Shown piece after piece: positions 25,001-38,461 of a DNA stretch of 64,000 bases. Both the position numbers and the translations under genes were made by a program. The notes under the pieces were generated by a model. That model saw nothing but the letters and a program-made list of their open reading frames with translations. It searched no databases and was not told where the DNA came from. The DNA is from Candidatus Iainarchaeum sp. (GTDB taxonomy: Archaea; Iainarchaeota; Iainarchaeia; Iainarchaeales; JAZDDZ01): the NCBI GenBank assembly GCA_043809245.1, contig JAZDDZ010000047.1, positions 1-64,000 on the forward strand, read 5' to 3'. Numbering within the stretch: position 1 is the stretch's first letter; each line of letters begins with the position of its first letter.

Positions 25001-26642
25001 TCCAATGATAACCATCAATGGGTTAGTGGACGAGGTGCGGCTGAGCAATGGCGCAAAACAATCCTTTAACGGCATGGGTGTAGCGGAAAACGTTGTGCCA
25101 GTGAAATTTTCTGTGTCTTCCTCTGCGGAAGAAAAAAGAGGTTGCCTGGGGGGAGAAGCAAAAAAAACTGTCATGAGAAGGCAGTTAAGCCTCTGCAATA
25201 ATTCCGCAATGAATGCATCGCAGGGCTTTCCGGTTGAAATCAGTTCAGGGGAATTCGATTTGGAGCAATGCATTGCAGAAGGAAAATGCATGCAGGATTT
25301 GAGCGATGCAAGGGTTTACTGGATGAATTACGAGGGGGTAATGCAGGAGATCCCGAGAAGCATTGGGGAAGAGAACGGCAAGAGGGCGCCGTGGTTTGAA
25401 CTGCAGAAAACGCTTTTGCAGGGAAAGTGCTCAACTGATGCAGGTGAAAACAATTACTGGCTGTATTATTCCGATTCATCACTTTCCGCACCGAATTATT
25501 TAGAGGAATTCCCAATGCCAGTGCCAGACTTAAACCAGTCACCGCAGAGAATAATGGGCTACTGGCACCTTGAAAACAATTTGGAAGACGACTCCGGCAA
25601 TGGTTTCAATGGAAGCGCGGGCAACGGGGAAATTTACTCTAACGCCCAAGGCAATTTTTTCAGCGATTACAGTTATGGCCCGATTACGCCTGCGAACGAC
25701 AAATACATTACAATTACGCCGGGATTATGGTATAATGTCAATCACGCCTACACGCTTGAAATGGTTGCAACAATCCAGGCATTAAACAACCCTTCGAACA
25801 TCCTTTTCACGGTAAAAAACTGCGGGCAGCCTGTTTACGCGGAAATCCACCCTGACGGTGCAATATGGTGGGATACACCTGGTGGCTCAGGCGGCGTGCT
25901 TACTGATGCCGGAATTGTTTCAGCGGGAAAAACATATCACCTTGCGTTCGTGTTTGATGGAAGCAATGCAAGAATTTACGTTGACGGCGTGCCGAGTGCC
26001 GCGGTTGCAGCAGGGGACATGCCCGCAAGCTGTACTGAAACAGTCATAGGCAATTATTATTCGCTTAACTATCTGAACCTGAATGGTTTTGTTGACGAAA
26101 TCCGCTTAAGCAGCTACGCAAGGACAGACTTCCCAAGCATTAACGGTTCGCCTTTGCTTTCCGGTTTTACGGCAAACGCGCTTGAAGAAGAGCCGATTGA
26201 TGTTTTCGCGCCATTGGAAGAGGATTCAAACAGGGTTGTTGACTTGAACGTGCCTGTCGGCGTGGCGCCAGGCGAATACGATGTCAACGTAATAGTTCAC
26301 TTTGAGGACAAAATTGTTTCAGCAGCGGGAACACTAAGCGTTGTTGTGCCTGAAACAGGCACAATAAACAGCGTTGCATTGCCTTCAAGCGTGCAAATGA
26401 ATGAAAGCACGCAACTGGAAATTGATTTTGGAAATTCAAGCGCTACAGCGAAAATCAGCCCGCAGTTTTTGGCTTTAGTGCAGGACAAAAACGGAAACGC
26501 GCTCAAGGCATTGAATTTTGGCGGAGAAGAAATTGAGGCAAACAGTTCAAGGGTTTATTCAGCCGAATTTACTGCGGATATTCCTGCAGGGGGAATACGA
26601 TTTGAATGTAATTGCAGATTACGGTGCACGGCCAATAAATGA
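22035..26642 (+). CDS. Giant S8 subtilisin-like surface protease, N-terminal part (S8, two DUF2341-like/LamG units)
   Basis: Signal peptide; IIDSGID, HGTHVAG, SGTSMSAP triad; WQHLAFV..IYVDG..DEVRLS LamG repeats. Confidence 0.9.
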   Translation: MNKPILSLLLFSLLFSTLLLVGAVQPSVGSLKIQPELRADALSAPKARQTVLIVLNDASQLASVDSVTNSLRGTVKERYAIGRVVVAEIGLDKLNSLAANSAVKAIYPNEEVRATLDFAAPQINAPTAWENGLTGKGVKIAIIDSGIDETNPMLQGKVVAAANFSNSPYTTDSFGHGTHVAGIAAGTNANGGAFNGVAPDAMLLNAKALDDSGIGSTASVIAAINWAVENNADIINLSLGASFSDPQNPIDLAIQDAVANGTIVVAAAGNCGNSCPSAGCGSFRGVGVPGDSLDAITVGAVDSANNWACFSAGSNIEGVGIKPDIVAPGVNIFSSVPGGTQAKSGTSMSAPFVAGAAAILLEADASMTPLQAKQWLESNAIDLGAPGKDTSFGAGVLGLENAGTPSDSNAIAFTYIFVEPAVLQNDSTEFIVKVEGRNEVETVNASITKPDGENVLLSMNKDNNGFWHALFNDTGALGLYLIGFEAEDASGAKANAAASFSVKTSIGLPPDYNKFLSVEYSFDAPDEITKTIPSEMVLNVRLLGPAEYAAEIPPKDTVAEFTVKDEFGNIVDKEFVGPQEIYVMSDADFRFSWTDSMVGDYNIEASILMEGSLAGEAEKETRVTVPGNSLEITSVSMDSSVEKGASAAYSVGLQQNIAIPLDGFIEVQLLDKQGELAGLAVNDGLRNNACSSDAEWWNDWWGFRKKIKICNESASETIYAASPVSFEKEALDLGKCAEEFQCRQDFSDLRVIMVNEQGQFIEVPYGIENSDTNRVWFEAQKDLAPGECTSDTGLNSYWVYYGNLNADAPAQTDLHLPAIDSGLTTNALLHLDNSGKDSSKNRINAAHSIDSSFFVDEGVYGKAVKTEDNGEYVEIPVNGTWPASSRFALEMYVKLVYSGRTSNTLFQGLGCGEFYAESYNEGQMVWRINGRIVSTPTGVLKENTWQHLAFVNNGSSYIIYVDGVFKGNTASNGDVFVCSTINIGRYSTTPMITINGLVDEVRLSNGAKQSFNGMGVAENVVPVKFSVSSSAEEKRGCLGGEAKKTVMRRQLSLCNNSAMNASQGFPVEISSGEFDLEQCIAEGKCMQDLSDARVYWMNYEGVMQEIPRSIGEENGKRAPWFELQKTLLQGKCSTDAGENNYWLYYSDSSLSAPNYLEEFPMPVPDLNQSPQRIMGYWHLENNLEDDSGNGFNGSAGNGEIYSNAQGNFFSDYSYGPITPANDKYITITPGLWYNVNHAYTLEMVATIQALNNPSNILFTVKNCGQPVYAEIHPDGAIWWDTPGGSGGVLTDAGIVSAGKTYHLAFVFDGSNARIYVDGVPSAAVAAGDMPASCTETVIGNYYSLNYLNLNGFVDEIRLSSYARTDFPSINGSPLLSGFTANALEEEPIDVFAPLEEDSNRVVDLNVPVGVAPGEYDVNVIVHFEDKIVSAAGTLSVVVPETGTINSVALPSSVQMNESTQLEIDFGNSSATAKISPQFLALVQDKNGNALKALNFGGEEIEANSSRVYSAEFTADIPAGGIRFECNCRLRCTANK

Positions 26643-29600
26643 AATAAAACCATTTACAGTCATTGACTCAACAAAGCCAACAATTAACTCAGTCTCATTC
26701 ACAGCAACACTACAGTCAAACCAGCCCAATCTCATTGAAGCAGGAACATTCGACGAAAGCAGTGTTGCATCAATTGCATTGAATTTAAGGAAGCCAAGCG
26801 GGGCAACGCAAAACATTCCAATGCAATTGCTTTCAGGATTTGACGGAAACGCTTACTGGAGCGCAAGCCTCAACGACCTGCAGGAAAAAGGAAACTATTC
26901 CTTCACGCTTACGGCATGCGACGCGTTCGGCAACTGCGAGACAAGCGCTTCAAATGCATTCACTGTAATTGATGTACCCGCGGGATGCGCTGGAAAAAAT
27001 GTGCTTGTAGCATCAATGGACAGCAACAATGTTTTTTCGCAGATTTTAAGCGCAAATTACTGCGTTGTTTCCTGGAACCTTGGGAAAACCGGCTCTCCAT
27101 CACTAGGTTACCTGCAAAAATTCAACGCGGTTGTTTGGAGTGCGGAAAACGATTTGACGCCTATTGATGCAAATGAAACGCAAGTGCTTGAACAGTTCAT
27201 TGCCTTGGGCGGAAAGCTGCTGCTTGAGGGTTCGGAAATTGCGTTCAGGCACTTTGACGACAATTTAATGCGCAACGTTGCGCATGCAACGCTTTACTTA
27301 GATCTGCAATTGGATGAAAACAGCGTGAACAAAATAACTGTTTCAAGAAAGCACCCAGTGACAAAAGGTTTAACGCAAATTGACCTAAATTACATTATAT
27401 CGGCTTTCCCTGATGCTGTAATGCCTTACGGCGGCGTGGGCCTTGCGGACTGGAACAACGGGAAAAGCGCAATGGTTTTATGGCAGAATGCCATGGGAAC
27501 AGCGAAAACCATTTATTTGCCATTCACGCTGAAATCGGTTGAAGGAACTGCAAGGGAAACGCTTGCAGGCAACGCGGTTGCATGGCTTTTGGAAAGCGCC
27601 TCGCTTGACTTGGCTGTAAACGACATTAATTTAGGCTCATTTGTAGTTGAAGGCACAGGCAAACCCGTAAATTTTTTCCTGACAAATTCCTCGGCAACGC
27701 AACTTGGCGTATACATTGACGGAGCACTGCAGAAAACAATCAGCGTAAGCGGAAGCACTGCAAGCACAACTGTTTCGCTTTCAAAAGGCAATCACTCAAT
27801 TGAAGCATTCATCAACCCAAGCTTCAGCATTAAGGAAAAGGATTACGTGAACAACAGCAAAACAATTGCAGTGAACGTTGCGCCGCTGCAGGCAGACATA
27901 ATAGTTGAAAAGGTTTGGGCTGAAACAGTCAACGACAGGAACGCATTGCTTTACGCGCTTGTTTCCAACAGGGGCGGGACAACAGCTTCGGTTAGCGTTA
28001 ATTTCAGTGTAGACGGAAACGCGAACGGAACCCAAGGCATTTCCCTTGCACCGAATTCAAGCCAGGCTGTCTCAAAGCCCCATGTTATAGTGAAAGGGAA
28101 GCATTTGCTGAACGTTAATGCCTCAACTGCAACAGATGCAAACACGCAGAACAATTCGTTGAACGCACAGATTTACTTCTGCTCACAGGGAAACATTTTA
28201 TTGATTGCAGATGACGACGCGCAAAGCGCTTCAACCGCGGAGCCAAGCAGCCTTGCGTCTTTCAGGAGTGCACTGCAGGCAAAAGGCTACTGTTACAGTG
28301 AATGGAGTGAAAAAGAAAAAGGCATTCCCCCGCTTTCCTTGCTGAATTCCGCTTCAGTGGTTGTGTGGAGTTCAGGCGATTACTGGAATAAGGCGGTTGA
28401 CGAAAAAGATTCCGCACTTTTAAGCCAATTCAATGGAAACATTTTATTCGAGGGCTCTGACATTTCCTTTGACCACAACAATGATTTGTTTGCACAGCAA
28501 AAACTGCACGCAACGCTTGACAAGGATTTGGCGTTAGACGAAAACAATTCAATGCTGGAAGTTGACGGAAACCACACATTAATGCAGGGAATCACAGCAA
28601 TTGACCTCAATGCTGCACTCTCCCCATACCCAGATTCAATTGCTCCGTTGGCAGGCACTGACAGCCCGGCAAGATGGAAAAACGCTTCAACTGCAATCGT
28701 TTCAAGCTTTTCTGGAACACAGAAAACGGTTTTCATTGCATTCTCAATCGACGCAATAAAAGACGAGAGCACGAGACAGAAACTATTGAAAAACGCAATT
28801 GATTTGCTTTCACAGCCCGCAAGCATTGCCTGTTATTCGGACAGCAACTGCGGAACAACAAGCTATTCAGCCAATTACTGCAGCCTAGAAGGGAATGCGG
28901 TTAGGGACAAAAACAGTTTCACTTGCCTGAATCCCGGCACGCCAAGCTCTTCATGCCAGAAAAATGCAGCCACGGAATTGGTTCAAGAATGCCCCAACGG
29001 CTGCAGCAACGGAGCATGCAATGCATCAGCAGAACAAGTCAATTGGATTGTAACGGGAACTGGAACGGAAACATGGAGTGAAACATTTTCAGAAAGCATT
29101 GAACTGACTTCAGGCGGAACCAAGCAAATGGCAATGCAAGCAAACGCAACAGTCACTTACAGTTACTATACTACGACAAACAAGTGGGCAAAAATAGGCA
29201 CATTCAACGCAAACCAAGGAGACACAATTGAAATAAGCTATTCATTTGACGGAAGATACGGAACATACACAGTAAAGAAAAACAGCACGACAATAAAACA
29301 GGCAAGGTCACGCTATTACAGAGGAATAAAAGCAGAATACTCTGCAACCGCAACACAAAAAGTCACAAGAACCGCAACAGATTCCGGTTCAGCTTCAATA
29401 ACTGCTGCGGAAGGAACAAAAGACCTAGGAACATTCAATGCAGTGCCGCAACCGCAAAACAGCGGAACAATTACCGGCATAACTTATTCCATTGAAGACG
29501 ACAACCCCGAGATCAACACATGGATTTCCAGCGGGCATGTTTTCGCGAAACTTAATGCCCCAACAATTCAGTGCAATTCAAATGCGAATTGCGATGACCA

Positions 29601-30402
29601 AAACCCGTACACCGAAGACATCTGCTTAAACCCAGGCACGATTGAAAGCCAGTGCAGCCACAACGCAATCGCATGCATCAACAAATTAGACTGTGGAACA
29701 GACGGCCTTGTGGGAAGCACTTACTGCAACGGAAACAATGTGTACAGGAATTACCGCACATTTGCGTGCAGCAGCCCAGGCACAAGCAATGCAACCTGCT
29801 CTTACAGCGATTCACCGCAGTTAATCCAGCAATGCGCGAACGGCTGCTCCAACGGCGAATGCCTTGTGCCTTCACAGCAATTCACCTGGATTGTAACAGG
29901 CACTGGAACAGAAACATGGAATGAAACGGTTTCAGAAAGCATTGAGTTGACAGCCAACGGAACAAAGCAAATGGCAATGCAAGCAAACGCTACAGTAACA
30001 TACAGCTATTATAACATATTCAATTCATGGAAACAAATAAGCACATTCAACGCAAACCAAGGAGACACAATAGAAATAACCTATTCATTTGACGGAAGAT
30101 ACGGAACATACACTGTAAAGAAAAACAGCACAATAATAAAACAAACAAAATCATGGTCATACAGGGGAATAAAAGCAGAATACTCTGCAACCGCAACAAA
30201 AACAGCCACAAGAACCGCGACAGATTCAGGCACTGCAATGATTACTTCGGCTGACGGCGCAAAAGATTTGGGTGCATTCAACGCCACGCCACAAGCATTG
30301 AACAGTGGAACAATCAGCAACGTGAACTACTCTGTTTCCGACGACAATCCGAACGTAAACACCTGGCTGCAGTCAGGGCACGTTTTCGCGAAAATGGGCT
30401 GA
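26518..30402 (+). CDS. C-terminal part of the same giant protease (frameshift at G-run 26589-26593)
   Basis: Removing one G gives PAGEYDLNVIADY and fuses the ORFs into ~2,788 aa; CARDB-like, Cys-rich and duplicated domains. Confidence 0.8.
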   Translation: MAEKKLRQTVQGFIQPNLLRIFLQGEYDLNVIADYGARPINEIKPFTVIDSTKPTINSVSFTATLQSNQPNLIEAGTFDESSVASIALNLRKPSGATQNIPMQLLSGFDGNAYWSASLNDLQEKGNYSFTLTACDAFGNCETSASNAFTVIDVPAGCAGKNVLVASMDSNNVFSQILSANYCVVSWNLGKTGSPSLGYLQKFNAVVWSAENDLTPIDANETQVLEQFIALGGKLLLEGSEIAFRHFDDNLMRNVAHATLYLDLQLDENSVNKITVSRKHPVTKGLTQIDLNYIISAFPDAVMPYGGVGLADWNNGKSAMVLWQNAMGTAKTIYLPFTLKSVEGTARETLAGNAVAWLLESASLDLAVNDINLGSFVVEGTGKPVNFFLTNSSATQLGVYIDGALQKTISVSGSTASTTVSLSKGNHSIEAFINPSFSIKEKDYVNNSKTIAVNVAPLQADIIVEKVWAETVNDRNALLYALVSNRGGTTASVSVNFSVDGNANGTQGISLAPNSSQAVSKPHVIVKGKHLLNVNASTATDANTQNNSLNAQIYFCSQGNILLIADDDAQSASTAEPSSLASFRSALQAKGYCYSEWSEKEKGIPPLSLLNSASVVVWSSGDYWNKAVDEKDSALLSQFNGNILFEGSDISFDHNNDLFAQQKLHATLDKDLALDENNSMLEVDGNHTLMQGITAIDLNAALSPYPDSIAPLAGTDSPARWKNASTAIVSSFSGTQKTVFIAFSIDAIKDESTRQKLLKNAIDLLSQPASIACYSDSNCGTTSYSANYCSLEGNAVRDKNSFTCLNPGTPSSSCQKNAATELVQECPNGCSNGACNASAEQVNWIVTGTGTETWSETFSESIELTSGGTKQMAMQANATVTYSYYTTTNKWAKIGTFNANQGDTIEISYSFDGRYGTYTVKKNSTTIKQARSRYYRGIKAEYSATATQKVTRTATDSGSASITAAEGTKDLGTFNAVPQPQNSGTITGITYSIEDDNPEINTWISSGHVFAKLNAPTIQCNSNANCDDQNPYTEDICLNPGTIESQCSHNAIACINKLDCGTDGLVGSTYCNGNNVYRNYRTFACSSPGTSNATCSYSDSPQLIQQCANGCSNGECLVPSQQFTWIVTGTGTETWNETVSESIELTANGTKQMAMQANATVTYSYYNIFNSWKQISTFNANQGDTIEITYSFDGRYGTYTVKKNSTIIKQTKSWSYRGIKAEYSATATKTATRTATDSGTAMITSADGAKDLGAFNATPQALNSGTISNVNYSVSDDNPNVNTWLQSGHVFAKMG
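29041..30393 (+). repeat. Two 510-bp copies of the C-terminal domain (29041-29550 and 29884-30393)
   Basis: WIVTGTGTETW...SGHVFAK repeated with long identical DNA stretches. Confidence 0.9.
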
Positions 30403-30447
30403 TGAACCAAACAAATAAAAAGATTCAGGTATATACTTGTATATACC

Positions 30448-31287
30448 ATGCTTAAGTCTTTTCGCGTTGAGGAGGAGGTTGTCAAGCCTGTTGTCAAGTT
30501 CGGCAATGGCTCGGTTGTTTTCACGCCTAAAAGGTGGATTGGCAGGAAGGTTACGGTTATTTTGCCCGAGGAAGTGGTTGACGTGAAGGCTGATGTGTTG
30601 AAGGCCTTGGAGCCTTTTTCCGAGCGAGTTCAGGGAGTGTATTTGTTTGGCTCTTATGCAAGGGGAGAAGAAACAAGGGAGTCGGATGTTGATGTATTGG
30701 TTTTTTCCAGCGCAAAGCTTGGCTTGAAAAAGAGTGGAAAGCTTGATTTTTTTGTTTCCTCCAAGGAAAAATTCGGGCAGGAGCTGAAGAAGGATAATTC
30801 GCTGTTTTTAGAGCAGGTTGTAAGCGAGGCAAAGCCCTTGTTTAACGGTGCTCTTTTGGATGAATTAAGGAAAGTGCGCGTAAAGCCGGATTTAGGCGGA
30901 TTTCTTAATGAAACGCTTGGCGCGTTTAAAAGCGTTGAATCGCTGCTTTCAAATGAAAGAAAAGCTGGAAGGAAAGCGCTTTCAGGAAACGCCTCAATTT
31001 ATTCGCTTGTGTTGAGGCTGAGGAGCCTGAACCGCATTCAGCTTTTCCTTAAGGGAAAACAATTCACTTCAAAGGGATTTAATTCAATGCTTGAAAGCCA
31101 TGGCTTCAGCAGGCAGGAAATCGCAGGTTTCACGGAAACTTACCGTGCGGAAAGGGATGAAAGGAAAGCCAAGGAAAGCGTTTCACTGGAAGAAGCGGAA
31201 AGGCTCTTTGAGGCAGCGAAAATAGAGTTCCTGAAAACAGAGAAAGCGGTGAAAGCGCGTGGGCGGAAGAAAAAAGAAATGCATTAA
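30448..31287 (+). CDS. DUF2080-like N-terminus fused to a nucleotidyltransferase and a helical C-terminal domain
   Basis: VVKFGNGSVVFTPKRWIGRKV; YLFGSYARGE..SDVDV. Confidence 0.75.
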   Translation: MLKSFRVEEEVVKPVVKFGNGSVVFTPKRWIGRKVTVILPEEVVDVKADVLKALEPFSERVQGVYLFGSYARGEETRESDVDVLVFSSAKLGLKKSGKLDFFVSSKEKFGQELKKDNSLFLEQVVSEAKPLFNGALLDELRKVRVKPDLGGFLNETLGAFKSVESLLSNERKAGRKALSGNASIYSLVLRLRSLNRIQLFLKGKQFTSKGFNSMLESHGFSRQEIAGFTETYRAERDERKAKESVSLEEAERLFEAAKIEFLKTEKAVKARGRKKKEMH

Positions 31288-31381
31288 GGCAATAGAATCC
31301 CTTGACAAAAGAATTGCAGAGCACAGAGAAAAGCAGAAACATGCCAGCCAATACAAACATTTAAATAGTTTTTTTCTTTAA
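31259..31381 (+). CDS. Small coiled-coil ORF, possibly truncated
   Basis: GTG start overlapping the upstream gene: MGGRKKKCIKAIESLDKRIAEHREKQKHASQYKHLNSFFL*. Confidence 0.35.
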   Translation: MGGRKKKCIKAIESLDKRIAEHREKQKHASQYKHLNSFFL

Positions 31382-31383
31382 TA

Positions 31384-31402
31384 TTAGTAATATAATTACT
31401 AA
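31384..31402. promoter_or_regulatory. Palindrome upstream of the AbiEi-like gene
   Basis: TTAGTAAT-ATA-ATTACTAA. Confidence 0.5.
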
Positions 31403-31414
31403 AAACGTGGAAAA

Positions 31415-32125
31415 ATGCAATTAGGTAAATTGGAGTCGGATGTGCTTGAGGCGTTGAAAGGCAATGGTTTGGCGGTGTTCAGGGCAAGGGATGTTTCCCT
31501 TCTTTTGCGTTTCAGCATGGTTAAAACTTATAACCTGCTTAAATCGCTGAAAAAAAAGGGCTTGATTAAATCGCTGCAGGGCGGCGTTTATGCAGTTAAG
31601 GGAACAGACGAGCTTGCAGCCGGCGCCTACCTCAACTGGCCTTCTTATCTTAGTTTCTGGTCTGCTTTGAGTTATTATGGGTTAACCGACCAAATGCCTA
31701 AAACGGTTTTTTTTGCAAGCGCCAAGTACAAGAAAAGGATTGGAAACTGCAGGTTTGTTGTGCTTTCGAATAAAAGGTTTTTTGGCTATACAAGCGTGGG
31801 CGGCATAACCATCGCTGAAAAAGAGAAGGCAATCATTGATTCTTTGCTTTTCCCCAAATATGCCGGAGGAATGCACGAAGTGTTTAACGCAGCCAAATCA
31901 TCCATTAAAGTGCTTGATTTGAAAAAGCTTTCAAGTTATGCCTTGCGGGTTAAGAGCAGGGCCGCGGTTAGGCGACTTGGATTTATTTTAGAGGAATGCG
32001 GAATCAGGGGAAAATATTTGGATAATTTGTTAAAGCGCAAGGGAAAAGGATTTGAATTGCTTGACCCCTCGCTTGAAAGAAAAAACAATTTCAACAAAAA
32101 ATGGCTTTTGGATGTAAACTGGTGA
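31415..32125 (+). CDS. Type IV TA antitoxin, AbiEi-like
   Basis: wHTH, SYLSFWSALSYYGLTDQMP, EKEKAIID. Confidence 0.85.
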   Translation: MQLGKLESDVLEALKGNGLAVFRARDVSLLLRFSMVKTYNLLKSLKKKGLIKSLQGGVYAVKGTDELAAGAYLNWPSYLSFWSALSYYGLTDQMPKTVFFASAKYKKRIGNCRFVVLSNKRFFGYTSVGGITIAEKEKAIIDSLLFPKYAGGMHEVFNAAKSSIKVLDLKKLSSYALRVKSRAAVRRLGFILEECGIRGKYLDNLLKRKGKGFELLDPSLERKNNFNKKWLLDVNW

Positions 32126-32883
32126 ATGAAATGATTTCAAGGGAAGAACTGGAAAAGGTTAGTGCGGCAAGGAAGACAAGCCTTTACTTCGAGGAAAAAG
32201 AATACCTGCAATACGTTTTCCTTCACTCGGTTTCAAGGTTTGCCGAATCATTTGCATTCAAGGGCGGCACTTGCTTAAGAATATGCCATGGCTTTGAAAG
32301 GGCTTCAGAGGACCTTGATTTCAGCTCTTCACTAAGCATTCAAAAAACGAGGAAAATCTTCGAGAGATGCCTTAAGGACTTCGCACTGCTCAACATAGAG
32401 CAGGAGGTTTTTTCAGAAAAAGAGTTTGAAGGAAACATAAGGTTTGAAGCGCGCTTCAAAGGCCCCCTGTTCAGCGGAAACCGCCACTCAACGAATTCGC
32501 TTAAAATTGATTTCAACAAAGGCAAATCAAGGAATACTGTTGCGAAAGCAATTCCCAAGCTGTTCTCTGACATCCCTGTTTTCACAATCCAGGCATTAGC
32601 CGAAAAAGAAATCCTCGCGGAAAAAATTCGCACCTTAATCAACAGGGGGCAGGCACGCGACCTATACGACGTCTGGATGCTGCTGCAAAACAAAACACCC
32701 ATTGACACAAAGCTCCTTGAAGCAAAACTAAAAGAAGAAAACAGCAGCATATCCAAGCTAAAAATGCCCGAAAAACAGGCATACGAAAGAGACCTAAAGC
32801 CCCTTCTGAATTTTCTGCCCCCCTACAAGCAAGTCAAAGAAGAAGCGGAAAAAGAACTCAAAAAAATCAGGCCACTGCATTAA
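32101..32883 (+). CDS. Type IV TA toxin, AbiEii nucleotidyltransferase
   Basis: FKGGTCL, RASEDLDF, AEKIR, ARDLYD. Confidence 0.9.
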   Translation: MAFGCKLVNEMISREELEKVSAARKTSLYFEEKEYLQYVFLHSVSRFAESFAFKGGTCLRICHGFERASEDLDFSSSLSIQKTRKIFERCLKDFALLNIEQEVFSEKEFEGNIRFEARFKGPLFSGNRHSTNSLKIDFNKGKSRNTVAKAIPKLFSDIPVFTIQALAEKEILAEKIRTLINRGQARDLYDVWMLLQNKTPIDTKLLEAKLKEENSSISKLKMPEKQAYERDLKPLLNFLPPYKQVKEEAEKELKKIRPLH

Positions 32884-32892
32884 ACCGAAAAG

Positions 32893-32937
32893 AACGGAGC
32901 GCGGAATTGCCCCGCGCAGGAAGGGGTTATGTAGAAG
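32893..32937 (+). repeat. Bipartite site copy 1 (type L)
   Basis: AACGGAGCG-N23-GGTTATGTAGAAG. Confidence 0.75.
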
Positions 32938-32952
32938 ACAGTTGCATTTCTT

Positions 32953-33384
32953 TTAACCCTTTTTTACGATTTTTTTCACCGCTTCAAGGAATCCAGTGGC
33001 AATTTTTATAGCTGAATCCGCTTCGGATTCCTGCGCTTCCGCGTTTTTACCCAAGCCGTACATGAAGTCGTGCCTTTGAAGCCTTAACGAGTTAAGTTCG
33101 TTGAGATACTTTCGCTCTATTTTATCCGAATATTTTTCTTTCAGGTAAACGTAGACCGCAAAATGGCTTCTTTCCTTGAACCCGTCCCTAAATAAAAGCG
33201 CCCTAGCCGAATGGAACATGGAAGTGTAGGCGTTTACAATCGCGTCCTCGAATATTTCGTGCTCCAATTCTTTTTCAGCCAAATCAAGCTTGTGCTCTGC
33301 CATTTCAATGGATGACAAGGATTTTTCCTTGTCGGGCTTTTCCCTTACAAGCAAGCCTTCCCTGACGCATTCCTCTACATTCAT
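32953..33384 (-). CDS. HEPN domain protein
   Basis: YTSMFHSARALL..ERSH; RHDFMY. Confidence 0.85.
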   Translation of the reverse strand: MNVEECVREGLLVREKPDKEKSLSSIEMAEHKLDLAEKELEHEIFEDAIVNAYTSMFHSARALLFRDGFKERSHFAVYVYLKEKYSDKIERKYLNELNSLRLQRHDFMYGLGKNAEAQESEADSAIKIATGFLEAVKKIVKKG

Positions 33385-33929
33385 AGTATCACGGGCCTTT
33401 CGCCGAGCAAAACAATTGAATCGTAAATAACCTTTTCATAAAACACCCTGTCTTCGGACGCCTTTTTCTTCCAATCGCCTAAAGACAGCACTGAAACATT
33501 CGCTTCCCTTCCGAGCCTGGAGAGGAAGCCGAAATCAATCTTTGCAGGCTTGTGCGCTATAACCAGCAAGTCAACATCGCTTTTCCCGTCATTCGTTCCC
33601 TTTGCAAGGCTGCCGTACAAAATTATTGCATGAATGTCCTTCAGCCTTTTTTTAATTTCCCCCACAACCCTTGCCTCTGCAAGCAGGTCAAGGTTGAATA
33701 AAACTTTCCACTGCCTGCACAAAGCGCTTTCAAGGTTCGCCTTAACCTGGTGGGTTCTGCCAATCTCCTCAAACGAAACAATTCCCTTCCGCTTCATGAA
33801 TTCCAGTGCATCCCCTGCAGAGCCTGCACTCAAACCCGACTCCAATGCAAGCCCCCTGACGGAAAACGCCTTGTTCGGCCTGGAAAGCACGAATTCAATC
33901 GCTTTAACCAAAGCATACTGTTCAAGCAT
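33381..33929 (-). CDS. HTH-fused minimal nucleotidyltransferase (MNT)
   Basis: ILYGSLAKG..SDVDLL; likely start MLEQY at 33929. Confidence 0.85.
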   Translation of the reverse strand: MLEQYALVKAIEFVLSRPNKAFSVRGLALESGLSAGSAGDALEFMKRKGIVSFEEIGRTHQVKANLESALCRQWKVLFNLDLLAEARVVGEIKKRLKDIHAIILYGSLAKGTNDGKSDVDLLVIAHKPAKIDFGFLSRLGREANVSVLSLGDWKKKASEDRVFYEKVIYDSIVLLGERPVIL

Positions 33930-34002
33930 AACAAATAATAAAAAAGACAAATGTATTTTTAAATAGAACATACTCGGGTATAAATCAATATAAAATACAT
34001 AT

Positions 34003-34018
34003 GTTCATTTAAATGAAC
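34003..34018. promoter_or_regulatory. Palindrome, probable MNT-HEPN operator
   Basis: GTTCATTT|AAATGAAC, matching the core of the 1381-1404 palindrome. Confidence 0.6.
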
Positions 34019-34040
34019 GTAAACCAGTAAGCCAATTCTT

Positions 34041-34085
34041 TTTCTACATAACCGCTTCCCCTTTTTCCCTTTCCCGCGCTCCGTT
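34041..34085 (-). repeat. Bipartite site copy 2 (type R)
   Basis: TTTCTACATAACC...CGCTCCGTT; 42/45 identical to 35552-35596. Confidence 0.8.
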
Positions 34086-34153
34086 GAGGCGTTTGCCGCA
34101 AGTAGGTTTAAATATGTATATGCCTATGTATATATCTATTCATATAGATATCT

Positions 34154-34774
34154 TTGAGGTGTACTGTTATGGTTAACCTTTCCTCTCCGAAAACTTTTTC
34201 CTTTGTTGAATTCATCTTGGAAAAGAAATCGTTCACGCAGTACTCCGCTGTGAAAGAATTGAAGCTTTCCATGCCTTTGGTGAACCAGGTCACGAATTTT
34301 CTTTTGGACAAGGGTTTTTTGTCGCATGACGGCAAAAAATATGTTTTGCGTGACGCTGCTGGGCTTGTTTCCGCGGTGCATTTGTTTCGGGACATGAGGA
34401 AAGCACTGCTTGTTGAGGTTTCCACGAGCCTTGGAAAAGAGGAGGTTGTAAAGCTATTGCCCTCTGCTGCAATTTTTTGCCTTGACAGCGCTTTGGCGCA
34501 TTACTCTAACTGGTGGCGCTCAAACAAGGCATGCGCTTACGTTACCGAAAAAGAGGCATTAGGCATTCAAAAAAAACTGTTTTACAAGAAAGGGGGCAAA
34601 ACAATTGTGCGATTGTTTTTAGAGCAGCCTTTGGTTAAAGACAAGGTGAAATTTCAAGGCAGGCAATTCACTTCAAAAATCAGGACAGTCATTGACATGG
34701 TGTGCGACAACCAAATGAATGCAGTTGAGCCTCTTTTTTCAGAGCTTTGGGGTGAAAGAATTGGAAGGCATTGA
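34154..34774 (+). CDS. wHTH protein, AbiEi-like antitoxin
   Basis: N-terminal HTH; FCLDSAL, SKIRTVID; paralog of 45390-45992. Confidence 0.65.
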   Translation: MRCTVMVNLSSPKTFSFVEFILEKKSFTQYSAVKELKLSMPLVNQVTNFLLDKGFLSHDGKKYVLRDAAGLVSAVHLFRDMRKALLVEVSTSLGKEEVVKLLPSAAIFCLDSALAHYSNWWRSNKACAYVTEKEALGIQKKLFYKKGGKTIVRLFLEQPLVKDKVKFQGRQFTSKIRTVIDMVCDNQMNAVEPLFSELWGERIGRH

Positions 34775-35447
34775 ATCAATTTACAATAAGGATGCAACTG
34801 AACTCTCCTTGTCCGAGTTAAAGCGTTTTCTTTCGTGGTGTGAATACACGCTGCATTATGCGCCAGTAATAATCGGCGGCTGGGCTGTTTACGCTTTCAC
34901 TCCAAAAATCGGCTCAATCGACATTGACATTGTATTGAAAAAGAAGGACTTCAAAAAACTTGCGGTTTTTTTCTCTGAAAACGGTTATGCGAAAAAAGAG
35001 GATGAACCGAACATTTACTTCAAGGAAGCCATGCTGCCTTCAGGCAAAACCGAAACAATGCGTTTCGACTTGATTGCATTGGAATCAAAGTATGCAATCA
35101 GCAGGGAGCCGAACGTAAGCATTCCCATAAGGCTTGTGGAAAAACATTCAAAAGAAATTTCCTTCGAAAGACAGAAAATAATTGTGCCGGAAAAAGAATT
35201 GCTGTTAATCCAGAAAGTTGCCGCATATAGGAATCGCGAGGACCTGGCCAGAACAGGGCATTTAAGGCTGGCTTTCGGCCAAAGGGAATGGAATGAAAGA
35301 AAAATAGCCAAAGACAAGGAAGACATTAAAAACCTCATAGAATCAGGCATTGACTTTGAAAAACTGGAAAAACTGCTTGAAAAAACCGGGTTCAAAAAAA
35401 TATACGAAGATGCATTAAAAGAAATCGACGCATTCAGGCAAAAATAA
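34719..35447 (+). CDS. Nucleotidyltransferase (AbiEii-like); start probably TTG 34761
   Basis: IIGGWAV, SIDIDIV, LIQKVAA, KDKEDI. Confidence 0.7.
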   Translation: MQLSLFFQSFGVKELEGIESIYNKDATELSLSELKRFLSWCEYTLHYAPVIIGGWAVYAFTPKIGSIDIDIVLKKKDFKKLAVFFSENGYAKKEDEPNIYFKEAMLPSGKTETMRFDLIALESKYAISREPNVSIPIRLVEKHSKEISFERQKIIVPEKELLLIQKVAAYRNREDLARTGHLRLAFGQREWNERKIAKDKEDIKNLIESGIDFEKLEKLLEKTGFKKIYEDALKEIDAFRQK

Positions 35448-35476
35448 AAAGGGAAGGATTACACCCCTGCATAAAT

Positions 35477-35520
35477 AACGGGGCGTCGAACCGCCCGCAG
35501 CGGAATTGGTTATGTAGAAG
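35477..35520 (+). repeat. Bipartite site copy 3 (type L)
   Basis: AACGGGGCG-N22-GGTTATGTAGAAG. Confidence 0.75.
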
Positions 35521-35551
35521 GCTGCACTGAAAACCGCTTCCAATTTCCTTC

Positions 35552-35596
35552 TTTCTACATAACCGCCTCCTCTTTTTCCCTTTCCCTCGCTCCGTT
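35552..35596 (-). repeat. Bipartite site copy 4 (type R)
   Basis: TTTCTACATAACC...CGCTCCGTT. Confidence 0.8.
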
Positions 35597-35609
35597 AGTT
35601 TCCCGGTTC

Positions 35610-36815
35610 TCAAATTTCTTGGCTTATGTAAAAGATTGGCCTGAATTTTATGTTGTTTTTTTCGGCATTCAATTTTTCCGACAGAATGAGTGCTTTTTTT
35701 GGCTTGTATTTTTCCGTGAAGCTTTGGAATGATTTTGATGCGATTGGCTTGTTTAGGCTGGATTTGATTTCAATTGGGATTATTTTTCCGTTTTTTTCCA
35801 GGACAAAGTCCACTTCGGCTTTTGATTTGGCACGCCAGTATTTCAGCTCGAATTGCTTTTTCACCAATTCTGTTGCCGCAAAGTTTTCGTATAATGCCCC
35901 TTTGTCGGCCCTGTCCTTGGCTGGCTGAAAGTTTTTAATGACCGCGTTCCTGAAGCCGTTGTCGTAAAAAAAGATTTTCGGTGCCTTTACCAGCTCTGTC
36001 CTTTTGTTTGAATAGAACGGCTGGCTTCTCTGGCAGATAAATGTTTTTTCAAGTATGTTCAGGTTTTTCAGCAAATCCTTGTAGTTCAAGGAAGTAATGC
36101 CTGACAACTCGTTATAGTTCAGAATGCCGCCTGTCTGCAGTGCGAGCGCGTGAATCAGTTTGCTGAGCTTGAAGTCCTCTGGAATGTTTAGGATTTCCTT
36201 TATTTCCTTGAGAAAATATGTGTTGTAAATGTTGCGCAAAACAAGCTCTTTTTCCTCCGAATTTTTGCTTAAAACCACCCTTGGATAGCCGCCGTACACG
36301 CAGAATTCATTAAAAAGCGGGATGATTTTCCCAATGACCGGTTCGCTCAGCCTCCCCTTAACGTAAATTTTCCCGAATAATTCGGGTTCCCTGAAGTTCA
36401 AAAATTCCTCGAAAGAGAATGGATATAGGTTAAATACAAGGATTCTGCCTACAAGATACTTTATGCCGTGAATGGACAACCCGCTTGCCGAAGAGCCCGA
36501 AACAAGGATTTTGGTTTCATGGTTATCGTAAATGAATTTCAGGTTTTTCCCGCCTTCCTTGGAGTACTGAAACTCGTCAATGAACAAATACTTGTAGGGC
36601 TTGACGTGCAGTTCAACAAACGACTTAATATCCCCGTTGAATAACTCTAAAGTCTCCCTGTCCTCGAAATCCAGGAAATGCGCTTCCTTTAATCCCGCAA
36701 AAATATGCTTTAACAGCGTGGTTTTGCCGCTCTGCCTCGGGCCAGTAACCGCAATTATCTCCCGCTTGCCCAGATAACGAAAAATCTCCCCCTCCAAAAA
36801 TCTATCTATATACAT
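35610..36815 (-). CDS. AAA+ ATPase (AAA_14) with DUF4143/PD-(D/E)xK C-terminus
   Basis: GPRQSGKTT, IDEFQ, GGYP, EVDFV..PIEIKS. Confidence 0.9.
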   Translation of the reverse strand: MYIDRFLEGEIFRYLGKREIIAVTGPRQSGKTTLLKHIFAGLKEAHFLDFEDRETLELFNGDIKSFVELHVKPYKYLFIDEFQYSKEGGKNLKFIYDNHETKILVSGSSASGLSIHGIKYLVGRILVFNLYPFSFEEFLNFREPELFGKIYVKGRLSEPVIGKIIPLFNEFCVYGGYPRVVLSKNSEEKELVLRNIYNTYFLKEIKEILNIPEDFKLSKLIHALALQTGGILNYNELSGITSLNYKDLLKNLNILEKTFICQRSQPFYSNKRTELVKAPKIFFYDNGFRNAVIKNFQPAKDRADKGALYENFAATELVKKQFELKYWRAKSKAEVDFVLEKNGKIIPIEIKSSLNKPIASKSFQSFTEKYKPKKALILSEKLNAEKNNIKFRPIFYISQEI

Positions 36816-37022
36816 TTTATCCCTGCTAAAATTTACACAATATAAATAATAGCAGGCATATATTTAAAGCTTTCTGCGCTTGTTTTCCTTGCTTTTTTTG
36901 CCTTTCAGCCGCTTTCTCCCCCCTTGCCTCTTGTTTTTCCGCGATTTTTTTCCAAGAAAGGTTTTTATATTAGGTCATCCTTTATCTATTACTTTAATTG
37001 ATTTGTTTTAAGGTGTTGTTTT

Positions 37023-37778
37023 TTGGTTGAAAAGGTTAAGACTGGCATTCAGGGCTTGGATAAGGCTTTGGAGGGCGGAATCCCCAAGCGAAACATTGTC
37101 TTGGTTTCCGGCGGAGCCGGAACAGGTAAAAGCACTTTATCCATGCAATACCTGGTTAATGGCGCGAAACTGTTCGGGGATCGAGGCCTTTACATCTCCA
37201 CTGAGCAGCGCCGAGAAGAATTGATTAAAGCGGGCATGAATTTTGGCTGGAACATTGAGGAATTAGAGCAAAAAAACCTGCTTAAGATAAAGTTTTTTGA
37301 CGTGGTCGGCGGCGACAACTGGCTGCAGAAGATTTACGACCTCTATACTGCATTCCAACCCAAACGCATTGTAGTTGACTCTTTAACGACTTTCACTGAC
37401 GCCATGCTTGTCGCTGGAATGGGCGAAGACACTGCGTTCTCCATGGTGCAAGTAGCTGAAACCGTTTCACCTGTGCCACGCACCGAGAAGATTATAGCGA
37501 AAACAACGCTGTACCATTTGATGAATAAGCTGAGATTGTTTGATTCAACTGTTATACTTACATCGGAGCTGGACGAGGGAACACAAAGTCTAAGTGCAGA
37601 TGGCGTAAGCGAGTTTATTGCGGATGGAGTAATAATATTACATTATTTGGGCGTAGGCGCGGTCGACTTTAGAAGCCTGCTCGTAAGAAAGATGAGATAT
37701 ACCAACCACAACAAGCAAACTTTGCTATACGATATTTCGCAGAAAGGAATAGAAATTAAAGAAGAACAAAATGTATAA
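37023..37778 (+). CDS. KaiC/RAD55-like single-domain RecA-fold ATPase
   Basis: TGIQGLD..GGIP, GGAGTGKS, RIVVDSL, ADGVI, KMRYT. Confidence 0.9.
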   Translation: MVEKVKTGIQGLDKALEGGIPKRNIVLVSGGAGTGKSTLSMQYLVNGAKLFGDRGLYISTEQRREELIKAGMNFGWNIEELEQKNLLKIKFFDVVGGDNWLQKIYDLYTAFQPKRIVVDSLTTFTDAMLVAGMGEDTAFSMVQVAETVSPVPRTEKIIAKTTLYHLMNKLRLFDSTVILTSELDEGTQSLSADGVSEFIADGVIILHYLGVGAVDFRSLLVRKMRYTNHNKQTLLYDISQKGIEIKEEQNV

Positions 37779-37783
37779 CATTT

Positions 37784-38461
37784 ATGCTTAAACACATTTT
37801 AGTTATTCCTGATGGCAATAGACGATACGCAAAAGAACGTAACTGTTCACTTCAGGAAATATACGACTATGCAATAATAGAACTTACAACCAAACTATTA
37901 AAATTTTTCCTAATTGAGAAAAACATCCCAGAAGTTACTATCTACGGTATTTCTTTAAACAATATCCTAAAAAGAAAAGCCGAAGAACTTGAACCAATTT
38001 TTAAGCCACAGATAAAAGCCTATAAAAAATGGTTAACTGATAATGATTTTAAGAATGCCCAAGTCGCATTTAGGTTTTTTGGGGAGATTGAAAAACTTCC
38101 TAAAAATTACAAAAAAATTATTAAAGAATTGGAAGCCGCAGCCCCAAAAAAACCAAAAAAAATGTGCAATCTTTTGGTTGGCTATGACGCAGAAGCAGAG
38201 ATAGTTAATGCTATAAATTGTGCACAAAAAAATAAAGGCAGAATATCCCAAGAAAAATTGCGTGATTTCTTACAACTAAAAACGCCAATTGATGTTGTTT
38301 TTCGCTCAGGTTATGAAAAGAGACTATCGGGAGCACCTTTAATTCAATCTAGCCAAGCAGAGCTGATATTTGCTGACTACTATTACCCCGAATTAAATAA
38401 AAAAAGAATGGAAGGAATAATAGAAGAATACAATAATAGAAAAAGGAGGCATGGCCAATGA
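37784..38461 (+). CDS. Divergent cis-prenyltransferase (UppS fold)
   Basis: HILVIPDGNRRYA, RSGYEKRLSG, AELIF..YPE. Confidence 0.8.
   Translation: MLKHILVIPDGNRRYAKERNCSLQEIYDYAIIELTTKLLKFFLIEKNIPEVTIYGISLNNILKRKAEELEPIFKPQIKAYKKWLTDNDFKNAQVAFRFFGEIEKLPKNYKKIIKELEAAAPKKPKKMCNLLVGYDAEAEIVNAINCAQKNKGRISQEKLRDFLQLKTPIDVVFRSGYEKRLSGAPLIQSSQAELIFADYYYPELNKKRMEGIIEEYNNRKRRHGQ

Follow-up and report, generated by a model that had tools for sequence, protein, structure and literature searches.

Paired two-box sites in a defence island of an iainarchaeal genome as possible halves of a palindromic element with dif-like arms

A stretch of 64,000 nucleotides from contig JAZDDZ010000047.1 of Candidatus Iainarchaeum sp., referred to throughout as the window, carries four copies of a two-box site (S1 to S4) among toxin-antitoxin and defence genes. 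The best explanation, to which we assign a probability of roughly 0.5, is that they make up two copies of a lineage-specific, imperfectly palindromic intergenic element of ~120 bp with dif-type arms, each copy consisting of a left (L) and a right (R) half; one copy would be empty and the other would hold a HEPN-MNT operon. The window belongs to contig C47 in a 55-contig genome (G000) of 1.48 Mb, 91.8% complete, which is the sole member of its family among the genomes searched and whose nearest relatives there share only the order, Iainarchaeales (DPANN), with it. To our knowledge, the biology of mobile elements in DPANN archaea is almost unknown, and the way in which their islands of defence and toxin-antitoxin genes come together is still to be explained.

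Results

Four sites in two probable pairs

The pattern AACGGRGCG-N20..25-GGTTATGTAGAA has exactly four matches in the window, and none of 100 dinucleotide-preserving shuffles contains a match. Box 2 alone (GTTATGTAG, at most one mismatch) occurs four times against an expectation of 0.15; box 1 alone also occurs four times against 0.84 expected, a count reached by 2 of 100 shuffles. The signal is therefore carried by box 2 and by the pairing of the boxes, and not by box 1. The four sites are:

32893-32936, plus strand: S1, L-type half-site; exact pattern, nhmmer E 6e-8
34042-34085, minus strand: S2, R-type half-site with a purine-tract spacer; exact pattern, nhmmer E 1e-7
35477-35519, plus strand: S3, L-type half-site; exact pattern, nhmmer E 9e-6
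35553-35596, minus strand: S4, R-type half-site; exact pattern, nhmmer E 6e-6

All four are intergenic, and their orientation along the window runs +, -, +, -. S1 begins with box 1 (AACGGAGCG); its spacer of 23 nt is GC-rich and contains a small hairpin, and the arm GGTTATGTAG comes next, followed by AA. The two L copies, S1 and S3, have both boxes and about half of the spacer in common. A weak similarity between S2 and S4 runs ~30 nt further inward, in S2 to about 34013, and is not significant (391 of 2000 shuffles reach the same level).

A preliminary description, made from the letters of the window, had named these four sites, and all are real by exact pattern match and shuffling. Its plus-strand starts (32893 and 35477) stand, while its minus-strand starts (34041 and 35552) are off by one; the R copies S2 and S4 are highly similar, as it said, with a count on the site strings of 41/44 identical positions in place of 42/45; and the empty slot that it placed between S3 and S4 is present, with a length of 33 bp (35520-35552) and not 31 bp. 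It also regarded the sites as four boundaries of five modules. The sites themselves remain; they are better taken as two pairs, S1 with S2 and S3 with S4, each pair representing one copy of the element and having its L half on the left and its R half on the right:

35477-35596, no strand assigned: empty element copy (box1-arm, 37-nt centre, arm-box1), 120 bp, non-coding, between the convergent NTase-like (nucleotidyltransferase-like) and AAA-DUF4143 genes
32893-34085, no strand assigned: loaded element copy with HEPN-MNT between the arms, L/R polarity as in 35477-35596

The HEPN-MNT operon between the S1 and S2 arms measures 1.1 kb, and the 140-nt stretch around S3 and S4 folds end to end. The element would thus read box 1 (AACGGAGCG), a spacer of ~23 nt, the arm GGTTATGTAG, a centre, the inverted arm, a further spacer of ~23 nt and inverted box 1. 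Its arm is the same 9-11 bp that form the palindrome TTATGTAG-N7-CTACATAA found across the order. Segmental duplication was considered as a source of the sites and is ruled out, because the gene modules flanking them are unrelated to one another.

Insertion of a 122-bp element of like build in another genus

The element is a discrete unit in one species (G125) of another genus, g65. At this locus, ACGGAGC-N39-GTTATGTGG-N7-CTACATAAC-N44-GCTCCGT gives the order box1-arm-core-arm-box1, and the 122-bp element fills the entire gap between convergent GNAT and ProRS genes, exactly between the two stop codons. The same gap has ~1-20 nt in the sister species G129 and G124 and ~45 unrelated nt in G128. 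As none of these three sisters has the element in this gap, the comparison of sequences identifies it as a discrete insertion, its precise loss in three species being the less likely alternative; on this point the preliminary description is supported.

A palindrome across the order as candidate dif site

In many relatives the 9-mer of box 2 grows into a perfect palindrome, (A/G)TTATGTAG-N7-CTACATAA(T/C), with symmetric flanks beyond it (sequences from 10 genomes). TTATGTAK-N7-MTACATRA is present in 105 of the 196 genomes of the order and in 38 of the 55 high-quality genomes, mostly once per genome, and the reversed-pattern control gives no match in all 196; many genomes have one palindrome of each of two core classes. 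G000 has one at C23:60535-60557 (TTATGTAT...ATACATAA), ~0.8 kb from the gene of a XerA homologue and ~43 nt upstream of a conserved 201-aa gene, and another at C23:68291-68313 (TTATGTAG...CTACATGA), which is preceded by box 1 at 23 nt and lies ~49 nt upstream of a cyclophilin-like gene. The distance between palindrome and xerA is 0.9 kb in G016 and 0.56 kb in G031, and it is below 1 kb in three of seven genomes.

In the complete genome G016 the cumulative purine skew has its maximum at 956-980 kb, with palindromes at 963.4 and 979.4 kb; the skew makes its opposite turn near 280 kb, a position from which genes point away. A switch of strand skew from plus to minus at the palindrome occurs in four of the six genomes tested (G016, G052, G019 and G093, sharply in the last three). 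Whether such a switch marks terminus or origin was called by the usual rule of a G-rich leading strand together with gene orientation. A replication origin at the palindrome was considered and set aside, the sign of the skew switch and the orientation of genes favouring a terminus. The locus also has a dyad that we take to be like an origin recognition box (ORB).

Archaeal dif is described as lying near the terminus, with 11-bp imperfect inverted repeats on either side of a spacer of 6 bp (PMC2958812), and the Thermococcus kodakarensis dif sequence and the rule TAA(N)6-8TTA are given in PMC11840125. The palindrome of the order resembles archaeal XerA/dif in its inverted arms, short spacer, mostly single copy and position at the skew switch, and its arm TATGTAG|spacer resembles the archaeal dif GATATAA|spacer; it differs in a spacer of 7 nt against 6 and in an inner arm that ends in TAG/CTA against TAA/TTA. 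It is the palindrome, and not the window sites, that combines an inverted repeat around a spacer of 6-8 bp, about one copy per chromosome, with a location in the presumed terminus region; each window site amounts to no more than half of such a core. The position of the palindrome at the skew switch, its closeness to xerA in some genomes and its dif-like build make it a likely XerA/dif core of the order, as a candidate predicted from sequence. The preliminary description had called the TTATGTAGAA box Xer/dif-like, which agrees well with its being one arm of a palindrome that behaves as the dif site of the order.

Further copies in the genome and the order

A profile built from 11 sites was used to search the contigs of G000 and returned seven clear copies (E 9e-6 or better) at three loci. 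Besides S1 to S4 these are:

C23:67789-67836, plus strand: further site copy, profile search
C23:68256-68302, plus strand: further site copy, profile search
C36:2427-2475, minus strand: further site copy, profile search

The next matches, with E values of 0.026 and 0.042, are marginal and both lie inside coding regions. The C36 copy (L042) is of R type and lies in frame within a yggS-like gene for a pyridoxal phosphate (PLP) enzyme, where it encodes NGAREMGKRLPCYVE; a site in G016 can be read as a tiny open reading frame (ORF) whose peptide is similar. The idea that the site is a fragment of yggS serving as attB was rejected, the yggS genes of G016 and G031 being without the motif, so that yggS is not a conserved target.

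Four of the 196 genomes of the order have the strict two-box pattern, and 14 have a pattern with a wider spacer, CTACATAAC-N18..46-GCTCCGT, for which the control gave one match; the search in genome and relatives for which the preliminary description had called thus yields seven copies in G000 and related sites in 14 genomes. A loose two-box scan of a wide genome collection gave at least 118 stretches, three of which are family-like, namely L146 (in G016), L075 (in G174) and L162 (in G031). All 25 matches of the loose pattern in viral sequences look like chance among the matches listed, the single match of a tight metagenome scan is on a GC-rich, bacterial-looking contig and was judged to be chance, and a literature search for the box sequences gave nothing relevant among the matches listed.

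Contig C173 of G174 has three half-sites in direct order, each exactly in a short gap between groups of 1-3 genes, and in G125 three half-sites stand alone next to housekeeping genes, no partner lying within 10 kb of them. In view of these solo and direct half-sites, palindromic pairing is common and not universal.

The 12-mer GGTTATGTAGAA is, as a separate observation, strongly over-represented in one genus, where it has no accompanying box 1, with 11 copies in G013 and 5 in G039. Of 26 GGTTATGTAGAA loci examined in relatives, 19 are in open frames of at least 80 aa, often as GYVE or FYIT, and 7 are not. These copies, mostly in long open frames and with no box 1, were rejected as instances of the element.

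A conserved non-coding unit with outward arms

Twelve genomes have a non-coding unit of 324-376 bp in which the arms point outward and box 1 inward and which is bounded by inverted TTCTACATAAC/GTTATGTAGAA; it is found at C23:67466-67834 in G000 (E 4e-21), at L219:1499-1854, at L220:1499-1824 and at nine more loci. This unit of ~325 bp lies 400-470 bp from the palindrome, with the cyclophilin-like gene between the two in G000 and G094. It is single-copy and vertically conserved, and its orientation relative to the palindrome is identical in all 10 genomes compared. The interior has a conserved dyad, ATTCC-N4-GGAAT, followed by GGGGTG. Six related loci, including this unit, have no Rfam match at E up to 1, and the genes of the signal recognition particle (SRP) RNA and RNase P RNA are located elsewhere. 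A structured RNA was considered and rejected, RNAalifold on nine sequences giving -7.2/-6.5 kcal/mol on the two strands with covariation terms of -0.6/-0.2. Nor was there a sign of an invertible segment or shufflon: no inverted copy of the C23 unit was found in 10 genomes, and no strand-changing joint in read contigs, of which the coverage is poor.

Recombinases of the genome

No recombinase is encoded in the window, as the preliminary description had noted, and the XerA homologue of G000 is on another contig. G000 has five tyrosine recombinases besides XerA, in open frames of 305-490 aa on C27, C4, C8, C19 and C49, and no site was found beside any of them. Long integrases of this kind are also present in G174, G037 and G031, and absent from G016.

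Discussion

How the paired element might work

If the sites are halves of a palindromic element, XerA or another tyrosine recombinase of the genome would bind the arms, and the centre between the facing arms would be a recombination-prone spot at which a circular toxin-antitoxin cassette could have integrated. The main argument for such a spot is that HEPN-MNT sits exactly between two facing arms. The element itself would spread as a small non-autonomous unit.

Several observations weigh against this explanation. The centre of the empty copy measures 37 nt, far more than the 7 nt at the core of the palindrome, and the position of a second arm matches the arm consensus at only 5, 1, 3 and 2 of 9 bases in S1 to S4. 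No target-site duplication was found at the window pairs, at the units of G016, G174 and G031 or at the G125 element, and the solo half-sites of G125 and direct half-sites of G174 lack palindromic pairing. No direct sign of recombination was seen in two read runs, each of which holds 6% of the sampled words; one contig bridges S1 colinearly and none crosses S2 to S4, and an organism of roughly 90% identity appeared in run X2. The dif assignment has its own difficulties: xerA and the palindrome are on different contigs in four of seven genomes (family f24), G031 shows a weak skew flip, the sequence on one side of the palindrome is too short in G032 to tell, and the Orc1/Cdc6 genes of G016 (839789 and 1127072) are nearer the presumed terminus than the presumed origin at ~280 kb. 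Finally, an insertion hot spot in genus g65, the gap between a GGR-like gene and dinB (L321-L328), differs in content in each of six species, with no boxes at the edges of the inserts in any of them:

G124: 6.3-kb insert
G125: one solo site
G126: ~165 nt
G127: two-ORF module, read from sequence as AbrB-type antitoxin and MazF-like toxin
G128: 13 nt
G129: two-ORF module, read from sequence as ribbon-helix-helix (RHH) antitoxin and MazF-like toxin

Because these inserts have no boxes at their edges, toxin-antitoxin turnover there is independent of the sites, and the element may simply settle in permissive gaps of defence islands. The only joint seen in the read contigs is far from the sites.

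Competing explanations

The sites could instead be four independent Xer sites of pdif type, with AbiE, HEPN-MNT, the two-gene module, the empty slot and AAA-DUF4143 as modules that XerA shuffles between replicons or loci, a reading that we consider unlikely. It draws on the alternating orientation, the identity of the site arm with the arm of the candidate dif, the presence of XerA in G000 and the three sites of G174 placed exactly between small gene groups, and dif modules with accessory genes are described (PMC6449649, PMC13141974). The arms-outward units (324-376 bp) of 12 genomes, as at C23:67466-67834, also share the layout of S2 to S3; however, the C23 unit, being vertically conserved, single-copy and in the same orientation in 10 of 10 genomes, is not shuffled. 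Against it, dif and pdif are defined by two arms in an 11-6-11 build (PMC2958812), which no single site shows; neither a left partner for the AbiE pair nor a right partner for AAA-DUF4143 was found, and no module appeared in another context in the short read contigs or, one chance match aside, in the metagenome scan. Of the pdif layout claimed in the preliminary description, opposite neighbouring sites bracketing accessory genes hold up, whereas each site as an 11-6-11 pdif does not, one arm only being conserved.

A non-autonomous transposon with terminal inverted repeats (TIRs), that is, a miniature inverted-repeat transposable element (MITE) and a cargo-bearing 'mobile insertion cassette', would make the 44-bp sites the TIRs, with box 1 outermost and a transposase acting in trans; the likeness of the inner box to a dif arm would be incidental or reflect targeting. 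The 120 bp at 35477-35596 are non-coding with inverted 44-bp ends, the 122-bp element of G125, set exactly between two stop codons, is not shared by the sister species, and dispersed copies in G125 stand beside housekeeping genes. The element is thus short, non-coding, bounded by TIRs and present or absent among relatives as a MITE is, yet no copy has a target-site duplication. Moreover, the 23-nt middle is not the same at the L and R ends of an element, copy number is low, and the inner box is identical with the arm of the palindrome, a mostly single-copy site of 105 genomes. A full-length DDE_Tnp_1 gene is found neither in G000 (assembly 91.8% complete) nor in G016, which have only fragments (frames of 122 and 164 aa); G000 has one TnpB (OrfB_IS605) gene at C23:16963-17265, and no autonomous insertion sequence (IS) was seen near any site. 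On balance this explanation appears unlikely.

Static binding sites of XerA or another protein, serving regulation, insulation or chromosome architecture near defence genes with no mobility at all, much as the conserved sequences that flank dif in other archaea, would suit the palindromes at C23:60535 and 68291, each followed by a start codon after ~40-50 nt, and the conserved 325-bp non-coding unit with the same boxes beside the palindrome in 12 genomes; DNA surrounding dif is also described as an SMC boundary in Thermococcus without XerA (PMC11840125). This is improbable in view of the G125 element, which is inserted relative to sister species, of S1, S3 and S4, which lie at 3' ends of convergent genes, and of a patchy distribution (14 of 196 genomes).

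The preliminary description further proposed a relation to integrons and a single-stranded fold-back in which both boxes pair. The AAC...GTT at the site borders and the toxin-antitoxin cargo do resemble attC cassettes, which an integron integrase would recombine in folded single-stranded form, and archaeal integrons exist (PMC9668308). The fold-back fails, however: there is no R''/R', L''/L' fold, the two boxes pair in no site on either strand, and the R sites, at -1.1 and -4.4 kcal/mol (z +0.38 and -0.73), are unstructured. The integron relation falls as well, the orientation of the sites alternating where archaeal cassettes are generally co-oriented (PMC9668308) and no IntI exceeding the cut-off in the 91.8%-complete genome; the best match to the IntI model TIGR02249 is XerA itself, in two pieces of 131.6 and 101.3 bits against a cut-off of 265, which lacks model positions 183-235. 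Positions 30000-38000 have no Rfam match at E up to 10, although the presence of an attC model in Rfam is not confirmed. An integron is accordingly hardly credible here.

Relation to known systems and wider meaning

The palindromic element would share with the pdif modules of Acinetobacter plasmids the copies of a Xer-type arm outside the chromosomal dif, in alternating orientation with toxin-antitoxin or accessory genes between them (PMC6449649, PMC13141974, PMC10132070), and the absence of a dedicated recombinase, host Xer being the presumed actor. It differs in that pdif is a 28-bp site of two arms and a 6-bp spacer, whereas a window site has one arm and a second box ~23 nt outside it, in the pairing of sites into 120-bp palindromic elements, and in its chromosomal location in an archaeal host with a single XerA; module exchange was not observed for the window sites, where read coverage is poor. 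As with attC sites and archaeal integrons, small cassettes, toxin-antitoxin genes among them, are separated by short imperfect repeats; the element is set apart by its alternating orientation and by the lack of a single-strand attC fold and of an IntI (PMC9668308).

Two further systems are comparable. Palindromic intergenic MITEs such as Correia/NEMIS, ERIC and RUP likewise form imperfect inverted repeats of ~120 bp that are non-coding, lie between convergent genes and are present or absent in sister species. Unlike these, the present element has no target-site duplication and very few copies, no matching autonomous IS was seen near any site, and the element has a recombinase-type core in its centre and, in one copy, a two-gene operon. 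The sfx sites of the R64 shufflon are also asymmetric, with one conserved arm and alternating orientation; there, however, gene fragments are arranged beside the recombinase gene rci, whereas the window segments are whole operons with no adjacent recombinase, and no inversion was seen.

A bolder version, which we regard as doubtful, would see in these elements an archaeal counterpart of integrons and pdif modules: 120-bp landing pads that copy the dif core, with circular cassettes of toxin-antitoxin or defence genes entering and leaving at their centre through the action of XerA, the pads spreading through intergenic gaps of small-genome DPANN archaea and box 1 providing an accessory or arm-type contact by which recombination is permitted outside the terminus. 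Should XerA act on the elements, they would be the first archaeal case of cassette sites that exploit Xer, and one recombinase with short oligonucleotide substrates would make a simple in-vitro system; should the sites be inert repeats, they would be an ordinary small repeat family in a defence island. Whatever the mechanism, the analysis provides a candidate dif site for a whole archaeal order in two core classes, a conserved 325-bp non-coding element adjacent to dif with no Rfam family, and a clear insertion polymorphism of a 122-bp element.

Neighbouring genes and other repeats

The genes around the sites are:

31415-32883, plus strand: AbiEi/AbiEii pair, left neighbour (PADLOC; AbiEi E 1e-51, AbiEii E 4e-43), ending 10 nt before S1
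32953-33384, minus strand: HEPN, cargo between S1 and S2 (PF05168, E 1e-15)
33381-33971, minus strand: MNT nucleotidyltransferase, cargo between S1 and S2 (PF01909/PF18765)
34154-35447, plus strand: two-gene module between S2 and S3; ORF 1 matches no family, ORF 2 has a weak NTP_transf_5 match
35610-36815, minus strand: AAA_14-DUF4143 ATPase, right neighbour (PADLOC candidate PDC-S01, E 9e-89), with its stop codon 13 nt after S4

The HEPN-MNT pair (32953-33971) matches PDC-M05A in PADLOC, and neither ORF of the two-gene module is similar to the AbiE pair. The assignments of AbiE, HEPN-MNT and AAA-DUF4143 made in the preliminary description are sustained; its NTase corresponds to the weak match, and its helix-turn-helix (HTH) ORF is the one that matches no family.

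Just upstream of the AbiE pair, a stand-alone nucleotidyltransferase is encoded at 30448-31287 (PF01909; PADLOC PDC-S09/PDC-M05A), preceded at 26518-30402 by an ORF of 1294 aa with no clear family; the defence island may start near 30448-31287.

G094 has four near-identical repeats of ~110 bp (L282-L284; contigs C92, C19 and C36), each with a hybrid palindrome and overlapping an ORF of 70-72 aa. These repeats were considered as att sites of integrated elements and rejected, their neighbours being housekeeping genes and small ORFs with no integrase. Two of them are direct copies 8.3 kb apart around the gene of a 1827-aa protein with YadA-head repeats.

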